From: Candidatus Muiribacteriota bacterium
GTDB taxonomy: Bacteria; Muiribacteriota; Muiribacteriia; Muiribacteriales; Muiribacteriaceae
DNA: 37,350 nucleotides
Assembly: GCA_041654635.1 (NCBI GenBank)
Contig: JBAZDD010000001.1
Location: 1 to 37,350, forward strand
Direction: 5' to 3'
This document shows, in pieces, positions 2,540 to 32,320 of the stretch. A program made the position numbers and the translations under genes. The notes beneath the pieces were generated by a model. It had not been told where the DNA came from, did no database searches, and worked only from the letters and a program-made list of their open reading frames with translations. Every line of letters starts with the position of its first letter. Position 1 is the stretch's first letter.

Positions 2540-3601
2540 ATGTCTGACAGACAGGAAGGTCTTTTGGCGGGGAATGATATATTAACCGAAAACGGTTATA
2601 TTAGCATTGGAGAATTAAAAGAAAAAGATAAAGTAATATGTGCAGGTGGCTGGGGACAGGTTGCTGTATCAAAAATCAAAAAAATTAAAAAAGAAAAATA
2701 TAAAGGTCAAGTTGTTGAGTTTCTTGTTGAAGGAAAAAAGAAAATAAGAATGCTTCCAAAACAGGTATGTTTTTCAAAATTTGATTTTACCGGGAATGCG
2801 TATTACATAGTTCTTATTTATCGTCAACAGAAAGGTTGGAGAATTGGTCTTGAAACCGATATGCGTGGATTAAACAAACAGAATTTGAATTATGATGATA
2901 AATTCTGGGTACTTGATATTTTACAGGATGAGATGGAAGCAATATATTTTCAGCATCTTTATTCATACAGATTTGGAATACCTATGGTTAATTTTGAGTC
3001 TAAAAATGATAAATTTAATTTCAACCAGGATTTTATTGATAAAATCTTTACCATAATTGATACAGAAGAAAGAGCAGAACAGGTTTTTGACGAACTTTCA
3101 ATGTATAGAGACTATCCTTATTACATTGCTCCTAACAAGCAGTTCGGAACAAAACTTTTAACAATAATAATGTTTGGAAATAAAGAAAGAGCTCCTGAGG
3201 ATGAATGGCATCTTCACAGAATATATGTAAATGTTGATCATAATAAAATTTCTTATGGAAAAACAAGTATAATTGACCCTGCAAGTAAATCTGCATGGAA
3301 TATTAATACAATAAGAAAAGATTATGACGAATTGAATAACTTTGCAAATGTTCTTGCTGGATTTGAAGAACTTGAAATAATAAGACGTTCACAACTTACA
3401 AGTCAGTCACCTTTCTTTTATTTTCCGGCAACCCATCTTAAAAAAACCATGCTGCTTCCTGTATATAATAAAAAAGAAAAGAAAATTGATGAAAAAAGAA
3501 TAGAAAATGTATCAATGGGCGAATATGAAGGCGAAGTTTATTCAATAGAAGTCGAAAATTTGAGAAACCTTGTCGCAAATGATATACTGGTTTACAGTTA
3601 A
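2540..3601 (+). CDS. Free-standing intein-like (Hint-fold) protein with degenerate splicing residues and a roughly 200-aa central insert
   Basis: N-terminal GLLAGNDILTENGYISIGEL resembles intein block A. C-terminal GEVYSIEVENLRNLVANDILVYS-stop resembles blocks F/G. Nucleophile Cys1, block-B TxxH and the terminal HN are all substituted. The ORF has its own SD and ATG, with no flanking extein sequence. Confidence 0.65.
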   Translation: MSDRQEGLLAGNDILTENGYISIGELKEKDKVICAGGWGQVAVSKIKKIKKEKYKGQVVEFLVEGKKKIRMLPKQVCFSKFDFTGNAYYIVLIYRQQKGWRIGLETDMRGLNKQNLNYDDKFWVLDILQDEMEAIYFQHLYSYRFGIPMVNFESKNDKFNFNQDFIDKIFTIIDTEERAEQVFDELSMYRDYPYYIAPNKQFGTKLLTIIMFGNKERAPEDEWHLHRIYVNVDHNKISYGKTSIIDPASKSAWNINTIRKDYDELNNFANVLAGFEELEIIRRSQLTSQSPFFYFPATHLKKTMLLPVYNKKEKKIDEKRIENVSMGEYEGEVYSIEVENLRNLVANDILVYS

Positions 3602-3972: not shown

Positions 3973-6900
3973 ATGTCTAATTTTATTATTGAACTTGAAG
4001 AAGAAGATTTCAAAAATATTACAGGCGAATCATATTCATATATAGTTAATCATCAACTTATTGTGGATTCTGCTACAAATAATATAAAATTTAAATTGTT
4101 TTCATCAGAAGAAAATTTTTCAAAAATAAACATTTCAGAAATAGAAAAAAAATTTTTAACAAAGTATCCTGGAACTCCAGGTAATCTGAAAATTAATCTG
4201 ATAAAACCAAAAAGCAATATAAAAGATGTAAATCTTGCTAAAGAAAATATAATAAAAAAAGTTGCTTCTATTAATGGAAGAACAAAGCTTTTTCCAAGAT
4301 TTGCAAAAAACATTGAGTTTGAGTCTAACTCTGTAAAAATTATTATTGAAGCAAATTATTTAAATACAATAAATGATTTTGTAAAAAAAATTGAGAAAAT
4401 CTGTCGTGATGAATTTTTTAAATACAATTCTTCAAAACCTGATAAAGTTTTATTTGAAACTTTTGAAAATAAAAATATTTTTCCTGATATTGAACCAGAA
4501 GTAATTGTATATGAAGAAAGACCGGTTCAACCCAGACCAAAACCAGTTGTGAATAATACTAAAAAAAACGAATTTGCATATAGAAACAGAAGAAATAAAA
4601 ATTACTCAAAGTGTGATATCAATACAATAAGACTTGATACTGATGTAAGTGTTAAAGGCAAAATACTTCACTGTGAAGATATTAGAGCCACCAAAAATGG
4701 GAAATTTATTCATTCATATATTTTGTCAGACAAACTTGATTCAGTATATGTAAAAAGTTTTGAAAAAGAAGAAAAGCCTCTTTGTAAAAAAGGTCAATTT
4801 GTTGAAGTAAAAGGCAGGGTTAAATATGATGAATTTCAGAAAGAAACAGTAATATACTGTGATGAAATTTCTGAATCTGAACCTGAAACAAGAATGGATA
4901 ATTATCCTGAGAAAAGAGTCGAGCTTCATCTTCATACAAAAATGTCAATGGATGATGCAACTTGTGATATAAATGAAACAGTAGCTCTTGCTGCCAAATG
5001 GGGTCATAAAGCAATAGCGATAACTGATCATGCTGTTGTTCAGGGATTTCCAGTTTTTTATAATGCCTGCAAAAAAAATAATATTAAACCAATTTTTGGT
5101 GTAGAAGGATATTTATTTACAGGTGATGAAAATAATTTCAGAAATAAAGCTTCAAAAGATAAAACATTTCATATAATAATATTGGTAAAAAATAATACAG
5201 GAAGAAAGAATTTATACAAAATAATATCTGAATCCCATCTAAATTATTTTTACAGCAGACCATTAATTCCTCTTTCAATTATTGAAAAATATAAAGAAGG
5301 GCTTATTTTTGGCTCAGCATGTGAAAGAGGAGAACTTTTCCGAGCAGTATTAAATAAAAAAAGTGATGAAGAAATTGCTGAAATAGCTCAAAGATATGAT
5401 TTTTTTGAAATTCAGCCCATAACCAATAATAAATTTCTTATAAGACAGGGTGTGGTAGCTGATGAAGAAGAATTGAGAAATTTAAACAGACAGATTGTAA
5501 ATCTGGGAGAAAAATTTAATAAACCTGTTGTTGCAACCTGTGATACACATTTTCTTGACCCATGGGATTTTGAATACAGAAAAGTATTACAGGCAACAAA
5601 AGGATATGCTGATTTCATGTTTCAGCCAGAGCTTTATTTAAGAACAACCGATGAAATGCTCGAAGAATTCAGTTATCTTGGCGAAGAAAAATCAAAAGAA
5701 GTATGTGTTGACAATACTGTTGCAATAAGCGAGCTTATAGAAGAATTTAAACCAATACCAGATGGATTTTATCCACCTTCAATTGAAAATGCAGAAGAAA
5801 ATCTTGTTAAAATGGTAAACAAAAATGCAGAAGAAATATATGGGAATCCGCTTCCTGAAGTTGTCAGAGAAAGAATAGATTTTGAGCTTGATTCAATTAT
5901 TAAATATCAATTTTCAACACTTTTTTTTCTTGCTCATCTTCTTGTAAAACGATCACTTGATGATGGATATCTTGTTGGTTCAAGAGGTTCGGTAGGTTCT
6001 TCAGCGGTAGCAAGATTTTCAAATATAACTGAAGTTAATCCGCTTCCTCCTCATTATGTATGTGAAAATTGTAAATATTCCGAATTTTTTACTGATATTG
6101 ATATTGTTGGAGTTGACCTTGAGGATAAAAATTGTCCAAAGTGTCAGAATAAATTGAAAAAAGATGGATTTAATATTCCATTTCAGGTTTTTATGGGATT
6201 TGAAGGTGATAAAGTGCCTGATATCGATTTGAACTTTTCGGGTGAATATCAGTCTGTAATTCATAAATATGTCGAAGAACTGTTTGGAAGCTCGCATACT
6301 TTTAAGGCTGGAACAATATCCATGCTGAAAGAAGGACAGGGAGCAATGTATTTAAAAAAATATCTTGAAAGAATTTCAGATTCAACAACCAGCCTGAAAA
6401 AAAGTGATGAAATAAGGATTGTTAAAGGAATAGAAGGGGTAAAAAAAACTACTGGACAGCATCCGGGTGGGGTAATAGTTGTTCCGAAAAACATGGAAAT
6501 ATATGATTTTTCTCCTGTAAATTATCCAGCTAATAAAAAAGAAACTGGAGTAATTACAACTCATTTTGATTATCATGTTATGGATGCTCAGCTTGTAAAA
6601 CTTGATATGTTAGGTCACGACGATCCAACAATTATAAAACATCTTCAGGAAATGACCGGAGTGGATATATTTAAAATCCCTCTTGATGATAAAGAAACAA
6701 TGAAATTTTTTACAGAAGTTAGAAGCACGGCTATTCCTGAATTTGGAACCAATTTTGTAAAAAGAATGTTAGAAGACACAAGACCGACAAAATTTACAGA
6801 ACTTATAAGACTTTCAGGACTTTCACATGGAACAGATGTCTGGACAAATAATGCACAGGAGCTTATTAGAAGTCAGACAGCAGATCTGGCTAATGTTATA

Positions 6901-7608
6901 TCAGTTCGAGATGACATAATGAACTATCTTATAAATAAAGGATTGCCAAAAAAATTATCATTTGATATTATGGAACATGTGAGGAAAGGAAAAGGTCTTA
7001 AACCTGAAATGGAAGAATTGATGAAAAAACATCAGGTTCCAGACTGGTATATTGATTCATGCAAAAAAATAAAATACATGTTTCCAAAAGCACATGCTGT
7101 AGCTTATGTAGTAATGGCCTACAGAATTGCATGGTTCAAGGCAAATTATCCACGAGAGTTTTATTCAGCCTATTTCGGAGTAAGAACATTTAATGGAATA
7201 ACTTCTAAAGATATTGTACAGGGAAAAAAATATGTTATTGACAGAATAAATATATTAAGGTCTTTCAAAGATGCATCAGCTACTGATAAATCCCTTTTAT
7301 CATATCTTGAAGTTGCTCTCGAGGCGATGGAAAGAGGAATTGATTTTATTGAAGTTGATTTATACAAATCAGACTATTCAAGATATAAACTTGAAGGGGA
7401 AAATTCATTAAGATGCCCTCTGATATCACTTGAAGGACTTGGGGAAAAGGCAGCAATGAAAATATGTGAAGAAAGAGAAAAAAAACCTTTCAGAACTCAG
7501 CAGGATTTAGTTGCAAGATGTGGATTAAATAAAAATGTTCTCGCTTTACTGCGAGAGAAAAACTGTATGGGAAATCTGCCGGAAACAGATAACCTTTCAC
7601 TGTTCTAA
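3973..7608 (+). CDS. polC: DNA polymerase III alpha subunit, PolC type, apparently lacking the internal proofreading exonuclease domain
   Basis: OB-fold segment (VSVKGKILHCEDIRATKNGKFIHSYILSD...VEVKGRVKYDEFQKE). PHP start RVELHLHTKMSMDDA...AITDHAVVQGFP. PolC Zn-finger PPHYVCENCKYSEFF...NCPKCQNKL. Palm motif PDIDLNFSGEYQ, then TTGQHPGGVIVVP and the LVKLDMLGHDDPT motifs. 1211 aa against about 1430 for canonical PolC. Confidence 0.95.
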   Translation: MSNFIIELEEEDFKNITGESYSYIVNHQLIVDSATNNIKFKLFSSEENFSKINISEIEKKFLTKYPGTPGNLKINLIKPKSNIKDVNLAKENIIKKVASINGRTKLFPRFAKNIEFESNSVKIIIEANYLNTINDFVKKIEKICRDEFFKYNSSKPDKVLFETFENKNIFPDIEPEVIVYEERPVQPRPKPVVNNTKKNEFAYRNRRNKNYSKCDINTIRLDTDVSVKGKILHCEDIRATKNGKFIHSYILSDKLDSVYVKSFEKEEKPLCKKGQFVEVKGRVKYDEFQKETVIYCDEISESEPETRMDNYPEKRVELHLHTKMSMDDATCDINETVALAAKWGHKAIAITDHAVVQGFPVFYNACKKNNIKPIFGVEGYLFTGDENNFRNKASKDKTFHIIILVKNNTGRKNLYKIISESHLNYFYSRPLIPLSIIEKYKEGLIFGSACERGELFRAVLNKKSDEEIAEIAQRYDFFEIQPITNNKFLIRQGVVADEEELRNLNRQIVNLGEKFNKPVVATCDTHFLDPWDFEYRKVLQATKGYADFMFQPELYLRTTDEMLEEFSYLGEEKSKEVCVDNTVAISELIEEFKPIPDGFYPPSIENAEENLVKMVNKNAEEIYGNPLPEVVRERIDFELDSIIKYQFSTLFFLAHLLVKRSLDDGYLVGSRGSVGSSAVARFSNITEVNPLPPHYVCENCKYSEFFTDIDIVGVDLEDKNCPKCQNKLKKDGFNIPFQVFMGFEGDKVPDIDLNFSGEYQSVIHKYVEELFGSSHTFKAGTISMLKEGQGAMYLKKYLERISDSTTSLKKSDEIRIVKGIEGVKKTTGQHPGGVIVVPKNMEIYDFSPVNYPANKKETGVITTHFDYHVMDAQLVKLDMLGHDDPTIIKHLQEMTGVDIFKIPLDDKETMKFFTEVRSTAIPEFGTNFVKRMLEDTRPTKFTELIRLSGLSHGTDVWTNNAQELIRSQTADLANVISVRDDIMNYLINKGLPKKLSFDIMEHVRKGKGLKPEMEELMKKHQVPDWYIDSCKKIKYMFPKAHAVAYVVMAYRIAWFKANYPREFYSAYFGVRTFNGITSKDIVQGKKYVIDRINILRSFKDASATDKSLLSYLEVALEAMERGIDFIEVDLYKSDYSRYKLEGENSLRCPLISLEGLGEKAAMKICEEREKKPFRTQQDLVARCGLNKNVLALLREKNCMGNLPETDNLSLF

Positions 7609-14059: not shown

Positions 14060-15343
14060 ATGTATAATTTTGCTCTTTTTTTTGTAAAATATTTATTTTT
14101 ACCTTTTATAATGATTTATTTCAAAATCACAGATAAAGTAAGATATAATCACCTTAAAGAAAGAAACAGTTATGATTTTGAAAATCAGATTCAGAACAGA
14201 AAAAATAATTCAAACAAAAGAATACTTATACATGCAGTCTCAGTTGGAGAAGTTGCAGCAGTTAAGCCTCTTATAGATTATTTTCTGAAATATCACCCTG
14301 AAATCAATATTACAGTAAGTAATGTAACACTTACAGGAAGAAAAATGGCTACAAAACTTTACGGGGATAAAGTTGAATATATATGGTTCCCGTTTGATTT
14401 TAAAAGAAACTGTCGCAAATTTCTTAAATTTTTAAATCCCTATATTGTATTAATTGCTGAAACTGAAATCTGGCCAAATTTTTTAACAGAAGCAAAAAAT
14501 TTGTGTATTCCTGCTATAATGATAAATGGAAGAATCAGTCCTGATTCTTATAAAAAATACAGCAGAGTTAAATTTCTATTAAAAAAATATTTAAACTGTT
14601 TTGAATTAATGGCTGTTCAGACAGAAGAAGATAAAAAAAGAATTATTGAAATAGGTGCATTGTCTGAAAAAGTTTATGTTATGGGAAATTTGAAATTTGA
14701 AGCAATGCTTGAAAAAATTGATGAAAAAAAGTTTGAAAATTTTGTTTATGAAATGGCAATTCCCGCTGAAAGAAAAATTATTACAGTAGGTTCAACACAT
14801 GAAGGTGAAGAAAAGTTTGTTTTGTCTTCCTTTATGAAACTCAAGGGGGAGTTTCCTGATCTTTCAATAATTCTTGCCCCTCGTCACCCTGAAAGAGTAG
14901 AACAGGTTATTGATTTATTGAAAAAAACCTCTCTTACCTGGATATTAAAAACTGAAATAGACCCAATATATCCAAATAAATATGATGTTACAGTATTAAA
15001 TACAATAGGAGAACTTCAGTTAAGTTATGCAATATCAGATATGGCAATAATCGGGGGTAGCTTTGTTCCAAATGGAGGTCACAATATACTTGAAGCATTA
15101 AAATTTGGAATACCTGTTTTTTATGGAAAATACATGTATAATTTTGAATTTATAAAAAATGAGGCTGAAAAATTTAATTGCGGTTTTGTTATAGAAAACG
15201 CTGAGGAATTATATGAGAAAATATTATTTTATTATAAAAATGAAAATGAATATATTAAAATTGAAGAAAATTGTGAAAAACTTATAGCTGCAAATACAGG
15301 CTCGCTAAAAAAAATACTGAGTGTTGTAAATAAATTTATATGA
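14060..15343 (+). CDS. waaA: 3-deoxy-D-manno-octulosonic acid (Kdo) transferase
   Basis: N-terminal membrane anchor, then the family motif IHAVSVGEVAAVKPLI, ETEIWPNF, and C-terminal GGSFVPNGGHNILEALKFGIPV. Confidence 0.88.
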   Translation: MYNFALFFVKYLFLPFIMIYFKITDKVRYNHLKERNSYDFENQIQNRKNNSNKRILIHAVSVGEVAAVKPLIDYFLKYHPEINITVSNVTLTGRKMATKLYGDKVEYIWFPFDFKRNCRKFLKFLNPYIVLIAETEIWPNFLTEAKNLCIPAIMINGRISPDSYKKYSRVKFLLKKYLNCFELMAVQTEEDKKRIIEIGALSEKVYVMGNLKFEAMLEKIDEKKFENFVYEMAIPAERKIITVGSTHEGEEKFVLSSFMKLKGEFPDLSIILAPRHPERVEQVIDLLKKTSLTWILKTEIDPIYPNKYDVTVLNTIGELQLSYAISDMAIIGGSFVPNGGHNILEALKFGIPVFYGKYMYNFEFIKNEAEKFNCGFVIENAEELYEKILFYYKNENEYIKIEENCEKLIAANTGSLKKILSVVNKFI

Positions 15344-16827
15344 GAAAATTACCTTTAATTTTATTCCTGTCAGTTTTATTTGTAAACTTTATTTTTTGCG
15401 ACAACGAAGATATTTATCTTAAAATAAACGACGAAATCAGCTCTCAGATTAAAAAAAGAAACATTATCGCAGATACTTTGAACAAATATGAAAAAATAAC
15501 AGAATCTAAAATTGTTAATTTCAAGCTTGTTAATTTTGATTATAATCCATATGCTTTTGCTGTTGAGGTTGATTCTTTTCCGGGAGCATATATTATATTT
15601 GATAAAGAAACATTTAGTTTACTTCAATGGCCAATTAATTTTTTAAATCAGGACAATAATATATTTGACAAACTACCGGTAATTAATATATTCAGTGTTT
15701 TGTTTCAAAAAATTAATACTTCAAGAGTAGATTATCCAATAGAAAAATTAGGTTATATTAATGAATATGCAAGTCTTACAGAAGGAATTGATATTTCACT
15801 GATAAAAGCGGAATTTAAAGAAAATCTTTATATGCTTCCAGGATTAGAATTATATTTGCTGAAAGATCAACGTGAATCTCAGAAAGGTATAGATTATCTC
15901 AATCGGTTAAATAATACATCAAGATTCAAATATTTGAATGAACCTGATAATCCCTCACATAAATGTTATTTTTTTGCTTTTGCAAATACAGTTGACTGGA
16001 AAAGAAACATTGCTGGTGAAAACCTGAAAAAAGACAGTTATATAAATTTTTTAAACAGAAAAAAAGAATATGGAATAGATCCCAGATTTCTTGAAATAGT
16101 TTACCGAGACTTTGCTGGGAAAAATAATCCAAATTTCAAAATACTTCCAGCTTTTTTTTATGAAGACCCTGTAACGAAAGAATCTGTAACTTATGGTATT
16201 GAAGGAGTGGTTGAAATATTAAGTAAATTTGATGAAATACCAGATGAAATAGAAGACTGGGAAGTAACAAAAGAAATTTTTAAAAAAAGAAAATATTACA
16301 ATGTTTTGAACAAATTTGAAAGTCTTAAAATTAATGATGAAAATTTTCTTTTTACATCAGAACAGATTAAAAAAGCATTAAAAAATTATGGAGCTCTTTT
16401 TGCCGGTTTAGGTTTAAGACATTTTGGAGCAGAACTTACAGCTTCATCTCATGCCGTAATGATATGTGGCTATTATGAAGTCGATGATTATTTTTTTCTT
16501 GTTTATCAGGATAGTTACGGGGAAGATAAACCTTATAAAATGCTACCTTTAAATTATTTCAATTTTGTTTATGCTATTCCATCTCCACTTGATTTTAAAG
16601 TAACTGAAAAAAATACGGCTGTTAATATTCTGTTTAAAACTCCATTTGGAAAAACAATACATCCTGAATTTGAAAATCAAAATATTGATTATAAAAAAGA
16701 AAGAAATGGTTCATATACTTTTTTAAGAAAACAGGTAGCGTATTCTGTAAAATTCAGGAAAGATTATTTCATGTCTGAGAAAAATTCTGATTTTTTTGAA
16801 GTATCAGTGGAAGAGTTGAAAAATTGA
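15340..16827 (+). CDS. Secreted hypothetical protein with a putative papain-fold cysteine peptidase core
   Basis: Signal peptide MRKLPLILFLSVLFVNFIFC. Candidate nucleophile context SHKCYFFAFANTV. Candidate His/Asx context SSHAVMICGYYEVDDYFFLVYQDSYG, comparable to papain HAVxxVGY...NSWG. ATGA overlap with waaA. Confidence 0.45.
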   Translation: MRKLPLILFLSVLFVNFIFCDNEDIYLKINDEISSQIKKRNIIADTLNKYEKITESKIVNFKLVNFDYNPYAFAVEVDSFPGAYIIFDKETFSLLQWPINFLNQDNNIFDKLPVINIFSVLFQKINTSRVDYPIEKLGYINEYASLTEGIDISLIKAEFKENLYMLPGLELYLLKDQRESQKGIDYLNRLNNTSRFKYLNEPDNPSHKCYFFAFANTVDWKRNIAGENLKKDSYINFLNRKKEYGIDPRFLEIVYRDFAGKNNPNFKILPAFFYEDPVTKESVTYGIEGVVEILSKFDEIPDEIEDWEVTKEIFKKRKYYNVLNKFESLKINDENFLFTSEQIKKALKNYGALFAGLGLRHFGAELTASSHAVMICGYYEVDDYFFLVYQDSYGEDKPYKMLPLNYFNFVYAIPSPLDFKVTEKNTAVNILFKTPFGKTIHPEFENQNIDYKKERNGSYTFLRKQVAYSVKFRKDYFMSEKNSDFFEVSVEELKN

Positions 16828-18050
16828 AAAACACGACACTTGATATTATTCTGACAAATGATCTTCATGGTAATTTTCTTGCGTTAAATGCTTCGAATAT
16901 TATTAAACAAAATAGTACAAATAATTGCATTTCTGTAGATACAGGTGATTTATTTTCAAGGTTTTATTCGGGGGAATTGATTATAATGAAAACTCCTGAA
17001 GTAATTGATTTCTGGCTTCCAGGCAATCATGACCTGAGTTCTGAAATACCAAAAATCAGAGATTTTGTACTGAAAGGTAATGTTAAAAAAATTATTTCAA
17101 ATGTCAAACCTGTGGTTGAAAATGATTTTATCGAAAATGTAATAATTGAAATTGATGGAGTGAAAATTGGAATTTTTGGAATAACAACTTATGTCAATTC
17201 TGATTTTTTTAAATTTAAAGATACCGCAAGGACCATAATAGAAAACGTAAAAAAACTTAATGATGTTGATTTTATAATACTTCTCTCACATTTGGGTATT
17301 AATGAAGACAGAAGAATAGCTGAAACAGTTCCTGAAGTGGATTTAATTTTAGGTGGTCACAGCCATACAAGAATGACTTCCCCTGAACTATATAAAAAAA
17401 CACTGATTTTTCATGCTGGAGGATATGGAGAACTTGTTGGGAAAGTTACATTATGCTTTAATAACAAAAAACTTTCAGCTTATTCAGGTCAAAATTATAA
17501 TGTTTCAGAATTTAAAGTAGAAGAGAGTTATATTGAGGAAATTTCAAATTATAAACGAAAATTAAAATCTGTTATTTTTAATAAAGAAAATTTAATATTT
17601 GAAAAATATTCAGATAACGTAATAACTCACGCAGTTCTTCAATCGATTAAACATGAAACTGGAATAAAAAATATCATATTAAACTCAAGTCTTATAAATC
17701 CTGTAATGCTTAAGGGAAAAGTGACTTTTGAAGATTTAAAATACATATTAGGATATCACACTGATTTGTATATAATGTCGGTTTCTATGAAAGATATTGA
17801 AAAAGTATTGAAAAGGTCAACTAAAGACTATTATACAAAATTGCATTTTATTAAAGAGGGGAAAAAGAGAAGTAATCTGGATATGGATTTATTGACCGAT
17901 GTTGTTGTAACCGATTTTCTTGCCCAGGGAGGTCATCATGGCGGTTCTATGTTTCCTGAATTTCGGTTTAAAGATAGAATAAAATTTAAAAAGGATCCAG
18001 TAAAAATTCTTGCTGATTATTTAAAGAACAACTTTGAACATATTGTATAG
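16824..18050 (+). CDS. Calcineurin-like metallophosphoesterase / 5'-nucleotidase family protein (no signal peptide)
   Basis: Ordered motifs TNDLHGN, DTGDLF, PGNHD, LLSHLG and GGHSHT, followed by a C-terminal 5'-nucleotidase-like domain. The TTG start overlaps the upstream TGA. Confidence 0.8.
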   Translation: MKNTTLDIILTNDLHGNFLALNASNIIKQNSTNNCISVDTGDLFSRFYSGELIIMKTPEVIDFWLPGNHDLSSEIPKIRDFVLKGNVKKIISNVKPVVENDFIENVIIEIDGVKIGIFGITTYVNSDFFKFKDTARTIIENVKKLNDVDFIILLSHLGINEDRRIAETVPEVDLILGGHSHTRMTSPELYKKTLIFHAGGYGELVGKVTLCFNNKKLSAYSGQNYNVSEFKVEESYIEEISNYKRKLKSVIFNKENLIFEKYSDNVITHAVLQSIKHETGIKNIILNSSLINPVMLKGKVTFEDLKYILGYHTDLYIMSVSMKDIEKVLKRSTKDYYTKLHFIKEGKKRSNLDMDLLTDVVVTDFLAQGGHHGGSMFPEFRFKDRIKFKKDPVKILADYLKNNFEHIV

Positions 18051-18803
18051 AGAAATGAATTCATCTTTTGAAAGTTGTTCAGGTCTTTTGTTTATAACAC
18101 TTGTATCAAAATCAATATTATTGATTTTCAAATTAGCTTTGACACTCTTTCTTTTGGCTAAAAAAAGTTTTTTTAAAAAATCAAAATAGTTCAAGGTTGG
18201 TGCGAAAGTGTTTTTTGGGATTATTTCAAGGAGACATGAATCTACTCTTGGTCTTGGGAAAAAACTGTTTTTGGAAACATGACTGAAAATTTTACAATCA
18301 CAAGTCGTGTTTAAAAAAATCGTCTGTGCATTTACCGGATTACATTTAACAACCTTGACTGCAAATTCTTTTTGAACCATCACAAGAATTTTTTCCGGAA
18401 GGTTGATGTTTGTAAGCAGTTTTTTTAGTATCTCTGAAGTAACAGAGTATGGAATATTTGCTATTACAGAATATTTTTTATTTATTGGAAGTGCACTTTT
18501 TAAAAAATCCTGCCTGATTAAAGATAAGTTTGGGAATTCTTTTTCAAGTTTTTTAACAATATTATAAATTCTATCATCAGATTCGTATGAAATAACTTTT
18601 TTTTCTGTTTCGCAAAGTTTTGATGTTAAAACACCTGCACCGGTACCAATTTCAATTATTATATCTGAATCTGTATGAGTTGAATATGTTTTCATCATTT
18701 CTAAAATATCATTGTCTTTGAGATAATTCTGACCATGGGTTGACAATAGAGAAAAATTTTTGTTTACTATTTCATTAAAAATGTCTTCGCGTATAGTTTT
18801 CAT
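18021..18803 (-). CDS. rsmA: 16S rRNA (adenine1518/1519-N6)-dimethyltransferase
   Basis: HGQNYLKDNDIL, SAM-binding IIEIGTGAGVLT, and VIANIPYSVTSEIL (the NIPY motif). C-terminal RPEQLSKDEF. Confidence 0.93.
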   Translation of the reverse strand: MKTIREDIFNEIVNKNFSLLSTHGQNYLKDNDILEMMKTYSTHTDSDIIIEIGTGAGVLTSKLCETEKKVISYESDDRIYNIVKKLEKEFPNLSLIRQDFLKSALPINKKYSVIANIPYSVTSEILKKLLTNINLPEKILVMVQKEFAVKVVKCNPVNAQTIFLNTTCDCKIFSHVSKNSFFPRPRVDSCLLEIIPKNTFAPTLNYFDFLKKLFLAKRKSVKANLKINNIDFDTSVINKRPEQLSKDEFISLYNMFKVVL

Positions 18804-30313: not shown

Positions 30314-30641
30314 ACTTTTTTTTCTATTATGGTCAGTAAGTATTTCCCTGCTGGTTTTGTCTGAAAGAATTTTATTTTATTTTATAAAAAAAAATAAAAT
30401 AAAAAATCTACTTATTTTAAAAATTTCGGTTAAATCATTAGTATTTTCAATTATTTCATCTTATATAATTTTTTTTTACTGGATTATAACTTTATTTAAA
30501 CCAGATTTAACAGCCTTTTTCCTTTTTATATTTTATTCAGTAACCGGTTATATGTATAATAAATATGTATTGAAGTTGCTATCTACTGCAATACTTGGTA
30601 TTTTTATTGTATCGTACGTTATAAGGAGTATTATTTTATGA
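30258..30641 (+). CDS. Small hydrophobic membrane protein, hypothetical (start uncertain)
   Basis: Three to four predicted TM helices. Its stop overlaps the Omp85 start (ATGA). The ATG at 30258 would overlap the HEAT gene by 56 nt, so an internal alternative start is possible. Confidence 0.35.
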   Translation: MTDIFLFYQQKLGSYGRIELFFLLWSVSISLLVLSERILFYFIKKNKIKNLLILKISVKSLVFSIISSYIIFFYWIITLFKPDLTAFFLFIFYSVTGYMYNKYVLKLLSTAILGIFIVSYVIRSIIL

Positions 30642-32320
30642 AAAAAAGTTATTTATTATTTATTTTTATGGTTTTATTTTTGATAAACTCTCATGGCTTC
30701 GTTATAAATAAGGTAAATCTTGCTGGAAATAATACAATTATGGATTCAGTGATAAAGCTTTCAATTTCAGTTAGAGAAGGCGATAAAATTCCACAGTCAG
30801 AAAAAGAATTAGTTGATTTCTCTGAAAATCTTAAAAATGAAATTCTTGAACTTGGTTTTTTTGGCAACGCAGCAGTGACCATTGTTCCTGTAAGCAGAGA
30901 AGCGGCAAATCTAAACATTCAGGTTCTTGAATTCCCTGTGATTAAAGACATAATAATTGAAGGTGAGGAAGAAATTCTTGACAGAAATGAAATTATATCA
31001 AGAATGAAAACTAAAAAAGGAGATATACTCAACATTAATAGTTTTCGTGAAGATCTTATAAGTCTGAGAGATTACTTTTTTGAAAAAGGTGTTATACTGG
31101 GTGGAGAGTCATCTATTAATCTGAGCGAAGAATTTGATAAAGTTATTATAAAAATATATCGTTCTCAGGTTAACAGTATTGAAATTGAAGGTAATCTTAA
31201 AACAAGAGATAATGTTATTACAAGAGAGCTTGAGTTTGAAGTTGGATCAGCTTACGATTTTGTTAAAATGAGAAGATCATATCAGAATCTTGCCAATACA
31301 GGATATTTTAAAAAAATTGACTTTATTCCGCAGCCAAATGAAGATGGTGATATAGATCTTAAAATTGAAATTGAAGAAGATAATACAGGAGAATTTCGTT
31401 TTGGGGGAACCTATGGTTCTGAAAACGGATTGACTGGATTAATAGAAGTCAGAGAAAAAAACTTCAAAGGAAAAGGTTTTACTCTTAATGTTAAAGCAGA
31501 ATTCGGTGGATATGACAATTATGAGCTTGGATATTATAATCCAAGATGGAAAGATAAAAAAATAAGTCAGGGAATAAATTTTTATGATACAAAATATGAA
31601 AGAGACAGTTATTCTTCAACTGGAGTATTTCTGTCAACATACGAGGAAAGAAAAAAAGGTTTTAATATTTCCTGGGGAAAATATTACACAAGATTTTCAA
31701 GATTTGGAGCAACTTTTTATAATGAAAATATACAGATAAGTCCAGCAACCGCAGGTATAAAAGATAAAAATTCTCAGACATTAAGTCTTTCCATATCAAA
31801 AGATGTCAGAGATAATATTTTCTATCCAACTTATGGATATTATGCAATTTCATGGATAGACTATACCGGTGGATTATTAAAAGGACCTGATGAATATACA
31901 AGATACACTACTGATTTTAGAAATTTCAAACAGCTTTCACCGAGAATGGTATTAGCAACAAGAATTAAATATGGTAAAATTGACGTAAGAGAAGGTTCTG
32001 TTGAAGATTACGAACTTTTATCCTTAGGTGGAGGCAACTCACTGAGAGGGTATAGATTAAGAGAATTTTCTGGAACGGAAATGGCTCTGGGAAATCTTGA
32101 GTTCAGATATTCAATGAGCGAAGCATTTAAATTATGTCTTTTTTATGATACAGGAAGTATGAATTTTAATGACAGAATTTCCAAATCTGGTTCAAAATCA
32201 GCTTATGGAATAGGATTACAGTTTAAAACACCACTTGGAATACTCCGACTTGACTGGGGTAAACCTGTTGAGTCTGGTAGAAAAACCCGAAACTATTTTA
32301 ACTTTGGACCTATTTTTTAA
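30638..32320 (+). CDS. Omp85-family outer-membrane protein (BamA/TamA-like) with a short POTRA region
   Basis: Signal peptide MKKSYLLFIFMVLFLINSHG. POTRA-like repeats (INKVNLAGNNTIMDSVI, IKDIIIEGEEEILDRNEI, IEIEGNLKTRDNVITRELEFEVGSAYD). Beta-barrel region with GGGNSLRGY. Terminal aromatic residue in ...NFGPIF. Confidence 0.85.
   Translation: MKKSYLLFIFMVLFLINSHGFVINKVNLAGNNTIMDSVIKLSISVREGDKIPQSEKELVDFSENLKNEILELGFFGNAAVTIVPVSREAANLNIQVLEFPVIKDIIIEGEEEILDRNEIISRMKTKKGDILNINSFREDLISLRDYFFEKGVILGGESSINLSEEFDKVIIKIYRSQVNSIEIEGNLKTRDNVITRELEFEVGSAYDFVKMRRSYQNLANTGYFKKIDFIPQPNEDGDIDLKIEIEEDNTGEFRFGGTYGSENGLTGLIEVREKNFKGKGFTLNVKAEFGGYDNYELGYYNPRWKDKKISQGINFYDTKYERDSYSSTGVFLSTYEERKKGFNISWGKYYTRFSRFGATFYNENIQISPATAGIKDKNSQTLSLSISKDVRDNIFYPTYGYYAISWIDYTGGLLKGPDEYTRYTTDFRNFKQLSPRMVLATRIKYGKIDVREGSVEDYELLSLGGGNSLRGYRLREFSGTEMALGNLEFRYSMSEAFKLCLFYDTGSMNFNDRISKSGSKSAYGIGLQFKTPLGILRLDWGKPVESGRKTRNYFNFGPIF

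Follow-up and report, generated by a model that had tools for sequence, protein, structure and literature searches.

A PolC-type replicase that lacks the exonuclease module

The DNA analyzed here is a stretch of 37,350 nucleotides (positions 1 to 37,350 of the forward strand of contig JBAZDD010000001.1, assembly GCA_041654635.1, Candidatus Muiribacteriota bacterium), and we refer to it throughout as the window. It carries the gene polC, whose product of 1211 amino acids (aa) is an alpha subunit of DNA polymerase III of the PolC type, and whose features are collected in Table 1. The initial annotation, made from the sequence alone, had described the product as a PolC-type replicase in which the internal 3'-5' proofreading exonuclease appears to be absent, and the searches reported here agree with it on both points. 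The open reading frame (ORF) passes both PolC equivalogs of NCBIfam, with 1325 bits for PRK00448 (NF001688; cut-off 873) and 1235 bits for TIGR01405 (cut-off 1043), and all DnaE models of the same collection remain far under their cut-offs. Pfam recognizes PHP (residues 317-475), DNA_pol3_alpha, the finger domain, HHH_6 and, weakly, the OB fold (tRNA_anti-codon, residues 225-299, 18.7 bits, under the cut-off). The best sequence match in the PDB, 3f2b, aligns in one contiguous stretch over residues 224-1211 (E 1.5e-302), and the full-length PolC 9qpc aligns in two stretches that are split by the exonuclease (Exo) domain of 9qpc. The OB assignment is also consistent with the alignment to the OB domain of 3f2b, which starts at residue 224, and with the AlphaFold2 (AF2) model, in which the region forms a beta-barrel at E10-87 with SSB/RPA-like Foldseek matches.

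Canonical PolCs (the type found in Bacillus, Staphylococcus, Enterococcus and Thermoanaerobacter; PDB 9QPC and sequence P0043 of our set) have the same order of OB, PHP, Pol3, Zn finger, helix-hairpin-helix (HhH) and clamp motif, and are 50-56% identical to the window PolC after the junction. They also have a DEDDh exonuclease of ~190 aa (PF00929), with the motifs DIETTG398, NANFD479 and HRAVDD536 in P0043, whereas the window PolC does not. No RNase_T/DnaQ (PF00929) match was obtained in the ORF with Pfam even at E <= 1, and regular-expression searches of the ORF for the Exo I, II and III motifs returned none, as the initial annotation had stated. The NCBIfam match is split, with residues 391-1211 corresponding to profile positions 607-1444 and ~190 profile positions skipped. 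When 117 full-length PolCs are aligned, the stretch from ...KPIFGVEGY to NLYKIISES measures 244-246 aa in 81 canonical PolCs and 54 aa here, a deficit of ~191 aa, so that the shortfall in length relative to canonical PolC is indeed that of the exonuclease module. A hidden Markov model (HMM) of 206 positions, built from 49 canonical Exo insertions, gave no match on either strand of the 37-kb window in any reading frame (best E 0.27) and scored 311 bits with a control PolC. The comparison with other PolCs and the HMM search for the exonuclease, both of which the annotation had proposed, have thus recovered no Exo motif or domain in this ORF. Translation of nt 5098-5226 gives GVEGYLFTGDENNFRNKASKDKTFHIIILVKNNTGRKNLYKII, the junction that the annotation had quoted, and leaves a linker of 16 aa where canonical PolC has ~206 aa. 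We conclude that the window encodes a genuine PolC from whose PHP domain the DnaQ-type exonuclease module is missing.

The polymerase is otherwise complete, including the Asp triad, the Zn finger, the HhH domain and the clamp motif. The triad (D750, D752 and D878) is invariant across 166 PolCs, the PHP metal-binding nonet HHDHEHCDH has all nine of its ligands, and the columns of H319, H321, D328, H353 and E378 are invariant in 117 PolCs. An AF2 model of residues 215-1211 has a mean predicted local distance difference test score (pLDDT) of 89.8 and a predicted template-modeling score (pTM) of 0.82, and the junction is well ordered in it, with a pLDDT of ~83 for the linker block and 92-95 for the neighboring blocks. 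The top Foldseek match of this model is again 3f2b (TM 0.93/0.94, root-mean-square deviation 2.4 Å). This entry belongs, with 3F2C and 3F2D, to an engineered, exonuclease-deleted PolC of Geobacillus kaustophilus, in which a short loop likewise stands for the Exo domain at the same point of PHP. The protein in those structures was made in the laboratory, with its N-terminus deleted and an artificial linker of the GSGSG type, whereas the window PolC is natural and full-length and has a 16-residue linker of its own, whose length is conserved within the lineage.

The first 221 residues behave differently from the remainder of the protein, with 30-34% identity among Muiribacteriota versus 69-73% for the core that follows. 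No Pfam (PF14480 and PF11490, the NI and NII families, included) or NCBIfam match was obtained in this region, and its alignment with other PolC N-termini by hhalign is weak (E 0.0017, probability 15%). The PolC architecture of the initial annotation therefore stands for the OB fold, PHP, the Zn finger and the PDIDLNF motif, but its N-domain could not be recovered by sequence. AF2 predicts two alpha/beta modules (pLDDT 75.7), followed by predicted disorder at residues ~166-221, and Foldseek gives weak and generic matches of NusA-KH/PrgH-like and RBM-like type. The predicted fold is compatible with the published PolC N-terminal domain, which consists of two KH-like subdomains, and such compatibility is no proof of homology. 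Timinskas et al. likewise could assign no N-terminal domain in 7% of PolCs (PMC3919608).

The annotation had also considered that a misassembly might have removed the domain, a scenario that the independent assemblies do not bear out. An identical protein is present on contig CAZAAN010000002.1 (48.9 kb) of NCBI assembly GCA_964483065.1. The closest homologs (P0002-P0005; 61-72% identity) are annotated as Candidatus Muiribacteriota or Muirbacterium halophilum, and the full-length ones among them measure 1213-1228 aa, none with PF00929. Architecture, linker length (20 columns in the alignment) and gene order are the same in four Muiribacteriota PolC lineages, which come from independent assemblies in ENA, Logan and NCBI. 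An assembly artifact is thus excluded, and the wider proposal of a collapse, a deletion artifact or a decaying pseudogene retains practically no credibility: the DNA at the junction holds only trivial AT-rich short repeats, the frame is unbroken, the catalytic residues are all intact and the fold is confidently modeled. Since lineages that are only 61-72% identical share it, the architecture without Exo is older than the divergence of the Muiribacteriota lineages.

Table 1. Positions of polC and of the parts of its product in the window (residue numbers refer to the PolC protein)
Feature	Position (nt)	Strand	Basis
polC, 1211 aa, PolC-type DNA polymerase III alpha subunit without DnaQ exonuclease insertion	3973..7608	+	ORF listing, NCBIfam, PDB match
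N-terminal region, aa 1-221: two predicted alpha/beta KH-like modules (aa 1-165), then low-confidence linker; fast-evolving	3973..4635	+	
OB fold, aa ~224-300, N-terminal to PHP as in PolC	4642..4872	+	Pfam, 3f2b alignment, AF2
PHP domain, N-terminal part, aa 315-382; ligands H319, H321, D328, H353, E378	4915..5118	+	Pfam PHP, alignment
16-residue linker TGDENNFRNKASKDKT, aa 383-398, at the site of the ~190-aa DnaQ exonuclease insertion	5119..5166	+	Junction alignments, translation, AF2
PHP domain, C-terminal part, aa 399-~600; ligands H400, C450, D524, H526	5167..5772	+	Pfam, alignment
Cys4 zinc finger, C697, C700, C721, C724	6061..6144	+	Regular-expression match CENCKYSEFFTDIDIVGVDLEDKNCPKC; aligns to 3f2b Zn site region
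Palm catalytic motif PDIDLNF, residues 749-755 (D750, D752)	6217..6237	+	Alignment
Third catalytic Asp, D878	6604-6606	+	DDD triad alignment
Tandem helix-hairpin-helix domain, aa 1122-1202	7336..7578	+	Pfam HHH_6, 42.3 bits
C-terminal beta-clamp-binding motif, ...DNLSLF	7588..7605	+	C-terminal sequence; alignment consensus ends QLSLF

Exonuclease-less PolCs in other bacteria and their phylogeny

Whether natural PolCs without the exonuclease had been cataloged was left as a question by the initial annotation, and the answer is that they have been: Timinskas et al. (NAR 2014, PMC3919608) found 6% of PolC sequences to be without the Exo insertion, in Clostridia and Negativicutes and in an extra PolC copy in Thermotogae. 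All of these come from genomes that pair PolC with DnaE1, PolC in general being always accompanied by DnaE1 or DnaE3, and PolC itself was recorded only from Firmicutes, Fusobacteria, Tenericutes and Thermotogae (PMC3919608). In our own data the insertion is absent from 36 of the 117 full-length close homologs, cultured Heliorestis species with complete genomes among them, and from 22 of the 137 full-length representatives at 50% identity. The organisms named in the clusters of 20 representative PolCs are only Clostridia, Bacillota, 'bacterium' and Hydrogenedentota. The exonuclease-less form is therefore known and frequent, and what is new here is its occurrence in Muiribacteriota, a diderm candidate phylum outside Bacillota.

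The window PolC resembles the exonuclease-less PolCs of Clostridia and Negativicutes, such as that of Heliorestis convoluta (P0033, CP045875.1), in having a short linker (10-37 aa) instead of a DnaQ insertion in PHP, together with an intact PHP nonet, the polymerase motifs and the clamp motif, and the sequences are ~50-53% identical over the common region. It differs from them in its host, which is a diderm and no member of Bacillota and lies outside the range given in PMC3919608, and in an N-terminal domain that Pfam does not recognize. The gene neighborhood is also different, since polC of Muiribacteriota adjoins dnaG-rpoD and the context of the Heliorestis type is proS-polC-rimP-nusA. A search of contigs with PolC returned only metagenome-assembled genomes of Clostridia and one ORF of 407 aa that contains PHP, with no Muiribacteriota locus among the matches. 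This ORF (L012, 1792-3015, on a contig of Clostridium sp. HCP1S3_C6) is 28% identical to PolC residues 318-698, the PHP domain and the start of the palm, and could be a truncated or stand-alone fragment similar to the alpha subunit of DNA polymerase III.

To place the Muiribacteriota sequences, neighbor-joining trees were calculated on 923-961 shared columns with the linker left out. The exonuclease-less state is scattered over these trees, with at least 18 changes by Fitch parsimony and 24 maximal exonuclease-less clades, and some of these clades are nested beside canonical PolCs at 100% bootstrap (for example, P0057/P0061 next to P0036). The linkers of exonuclease-less PolCs, 10-37 residues long, are unlike between groups, and linkers this different imply many independent losses. 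The Muiribacteriota PolCs form a clade of their own (100% bootstrap), for which no sister group has support (best 9%), and they are equally distant from the canonical and the exonuclease-less PolCs of Bacillota; this separate placement indicates that their loss was probably independent as well.

Two representatives in the set at 50% identity depart from both common states. P0139 (1323 aa) carries at the Exo site a low-complexity-looking insertion of 141 aa, compared with a domain of ~206 aa, which may be a decaying exonuclease between the canonical and the exonuclease-less states. P0218 (1178 aa) is the only exonuclease-less representative in which the PHP nonet is also destroyed (HRSLENSDQ), and it is left with neither candidate proofreader.

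Genomic context and host

The window is of low GC content (24-34%), each 2-kb interval of it has a positive GC skew, and ~94% of its genes are on the + strand, the only real genes on the minus strand being 1613-2446 and 18021-18803. The strand bias and the skew suggest that the window lies entirely on a single replichore and that its genes are oriented in the direction of replication. Genomes that PolC replicates typically show a strand bias of this kind. Among the genes present are housekeeping genes (a sigma-70 factor, ksgA, tatD, dut, ddl and rsfS) and two markers of an outer membrane, BamA/Omp85 (30638-32320) and a Kdo transferase (14060-15343), and from these we conclude that the window is chromosomal DNA of a diderm bacterium rather than part of a mobile element. 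In the NCBI taxonomy Muiribacteriota stand under 'Bacteria candidate phyla', and a literature search on replication in Muiribacteriota returned nothing relevant.

The order of genes is conserved at the Muiribacteriota loci and runs dnaG, rpoD, an ORF on the minus strand, a Hint-like ORF of 353 aa, STAS, polC, ABC ATPase, FecCD permease, nifU, nifS, pullulanase and Kdo transferase. The Hint-like ORF (2540-3601, +), two genes upstream of polC, encodes a free-standing intein-like protein whose matches to the N- and C-terminal splicing regions of inteins are weak and all under the cut-off (Pfam 27.7 bits; TIGR01445 18.8; TIGR01443 15.5). Within this family the residue at the catalytic Cys1 position varies (L/V/P), and Tyr-Ser/Thr/Cys stands in place of the terminal His-Asn, so that the protein cannot splice. 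It is syntenic in all Muiribacteriota loci, 63-74% identical and exactly 353 aa long whenever complete, and a database-wide search found only 6 homologs, all from Muiribacteriota and annotated as hypothetical; it may be a domesticated intein. As candidates for the missing exonuclease, the Hint-like gene and the STAS gene were both rejected, as neither matches the Exo HMM. Two further ORFs, 1613-2446 (-, 277 aa) and 15340-16827 (+, 495 aa), could be assigned to no family of Pfam or NCBIfam. Their counterparts by position at the remaining Muiribacteriota loci are ORFs of 257-298 aa and 405-483 aa, likewise without a Pfam family, and the two may be lineage-specific proteins.

Proofreading and the origin of the exonuclease-less state

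We consider it rather probable that the window encodes a functional chromosomal PolC replicase that lost Exo in a Muiribacteriota ancestor, and in which the PHP domain proofreads in cis, perhaps with help from a DnaE partner. The ancestor of the Muiribacteriota sampled here would have lost the DnaQ-type 3'-5' exonuclease, and a loop of 16 residues would now rejoin the two PHP strands. Polymerization would run as in canonical PolC, as the Asp triad, the Zn finger, the HhH domain and the clamp motif suggest. Proofreading would fall to the PHP domain and its nine intact metal ligands, by analogy with some DnaE1 enzymes, and a partner polymerase of the DnaE type (DnaE1), with a PHP site of its own, may contribute.

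Proofreading by PHP has been shown experimentally for some DnaE1 enzymes (cited in PMC3919608 and PMC12926913), the PHP metal site of PolC is highly conserved (PMC3919608), and a 2026 survey counts a PHP proofreader as 'active' if it has the motif HHDHEH[C/H]DH and reports that Clostridia usually have three candidate proofreaders, namely PHP in PolC, PHP in DnaE1 and DnaQ in PolC (PMC12926913). The window PolC shares with the PHP-proofreading DnaE1 enzymes of Thermus and Mycobacterium tuberculosis (PMC3919608, PMC12926913) the lack of an integral DnaQ and a full HHDHEH[C/H]DH site. Unlike DnaE1 it has an N-terminal OB fold and a Zn finger and no DnaE C-terminal domain, and its identity with Escherichia coli DnaE is only ~30% over 641 columns. 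The initial annotation had named three options, a stand-alone DnaQ in trans, the PHP domain, or no proofreading at all, and of these, proofreading by PHP has the best support in view of the intact metal-binding nonet. Among the representatives at 50% identity the nonet is kept in 21 of 22 exonuclease-less PolCs versus 65 of 114 that contain Exo (Fisher p 4.5e-4, uncorrected for phylogeny), as is expected if PHP becomes indispensable once DnaQ is gone.

Several points weigh against PHP as the proofreader and against a secondary loss of Exo. The association between PHP and Exo may just reflect the split between PolCs of the Clostridia type and the Bacilli type, and the nonet is equally conserved in Exo-containing PolCs of the Clostridia type, so that its presence is no proof of proofreading. 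Our literature search found no experiment that shows PHP exonuclease activity in any PolC, and the paper on an exonuclease-deficient PolC of Staphylococcus aureus contains no data on residual PHP nuclease activity. The search of the host genome for DnaQ covered ~40-50 kb around polC, and a stand-alone DnaQ, a DnaE1 or a second, Exo-containing PolC could sit beyond it. In addition, the outgroup rooting on which the order of events partly depends is a weak test, with one sequence, at saturated distances (1.5-1.8), in neighbor-joining trees.

The reach of the genome search bears on the proposal that a DnaQ/epsilon-like exonuclease encoded by a gene of its own proofreads in trans, after domain fission or recruitment, as in the pair of DnaE and epsilon in E. 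coli. Stand-alone DnaQ homologs are abundant in bacteria, with more than 3 per proteome on average (PMC12926913), and the DnaQ domain of Bacillus subtilis PolC is able to proofread for DnaE3 in trans. We nevertheless think this proposal unlikely, as no RNase_T/DnaQ gene or remnant is present in any frame of the 37-kb window or just outside it, nor a DnaQ gene in the flanks of polC (+/-10 kb) in H. convoluta or in three further Muiribacteriota lineages, and the intact PHP site offers a candidate in cis. It appears less likely still that PolC is not the main high-fidelity replicase, that a DnaE1 with its own PHP proofreader performs the bulk of synthesis and that the role of the exonuclease-less PolC is restricted. 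Timinskas et al. raised this idea for systems of PolC and DnaE1, to which exonuclease-less PolCs are confined, and some Clostridia have DnaE1 only (PMC3919608). A restricted role sits poorly with the strong conservation of the core, with catalytic and clamp motifs that are all intact, with the conserved position of the gene next to the dnaG-rpoD operon, and with the strand bias and skew described above.

The preferred reading, in which Exo was present and then lost, has also to be set against a primitive absence, in which the Muiribacteriota PolC split off before DnaQ was inserted into PHP. With midpoint rooting the Muiribacteriota clade is on a long branch outside the sampled Bacillota PolCs, and this placement, the missing sister group and an N-terminal domain that the Pfam models of the PolC N-terminal domain miss would all fit an early origin. 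When E. coli DnaE is used as outgroup, however, the tree is rooted on Exo-containing PolCs (on P0166 in 79 of 200 replicates), and the Muiribacteriota branch is never among the eight commonest placements. The ends of the Muiribacteriota linker (YLF-TGD..., ...SKDKTFH) resemble the flanks of the canonical insertion (YLVNDG..., ...DIKKxxTYH), and losses have been many elsewhere among PolCs. We therefore regard a primitive absence as highly improbable; the placement in the tree, the outgroup root and the likeness of the linker ends favor a loss in Muiribacteriota that was probably both independent and secondary. A broader form of the idea, that this PolC either never gained the DnaQ exonuclease or parted with it independently at a very early stage, and relies solely on an ancestral PHP proofreader, is also very doubtful. 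If it were true, the lineage would be a living example of the form of PolC before the insertion, and a natural system for PHP proofreading in PolC.

The known range of PolC (Firmicutes, Fusobacteria, Tenericutes and Thermotogae) is extended by these results to a candidate phylum with an outer membrane, and that of exonuclease-less PolC (Clostridia, Negativicutes and one extra copy in Thermotogae) is likewise extended to Muiribacteriota; to the losses already known, one more is added that appears to be independent. The accepted view of bacterial replication stays as it was. The many independent losses, taken together with the retention of the nonet in nearly all exonuclease-less representatives, strengthen the hypothesis that PHP may serve as a proofreader of PolC, and the modest value of the Muiribacteriota enzyme is that it adds one more natural system in which proofreading by PHP in PolC can be studied.

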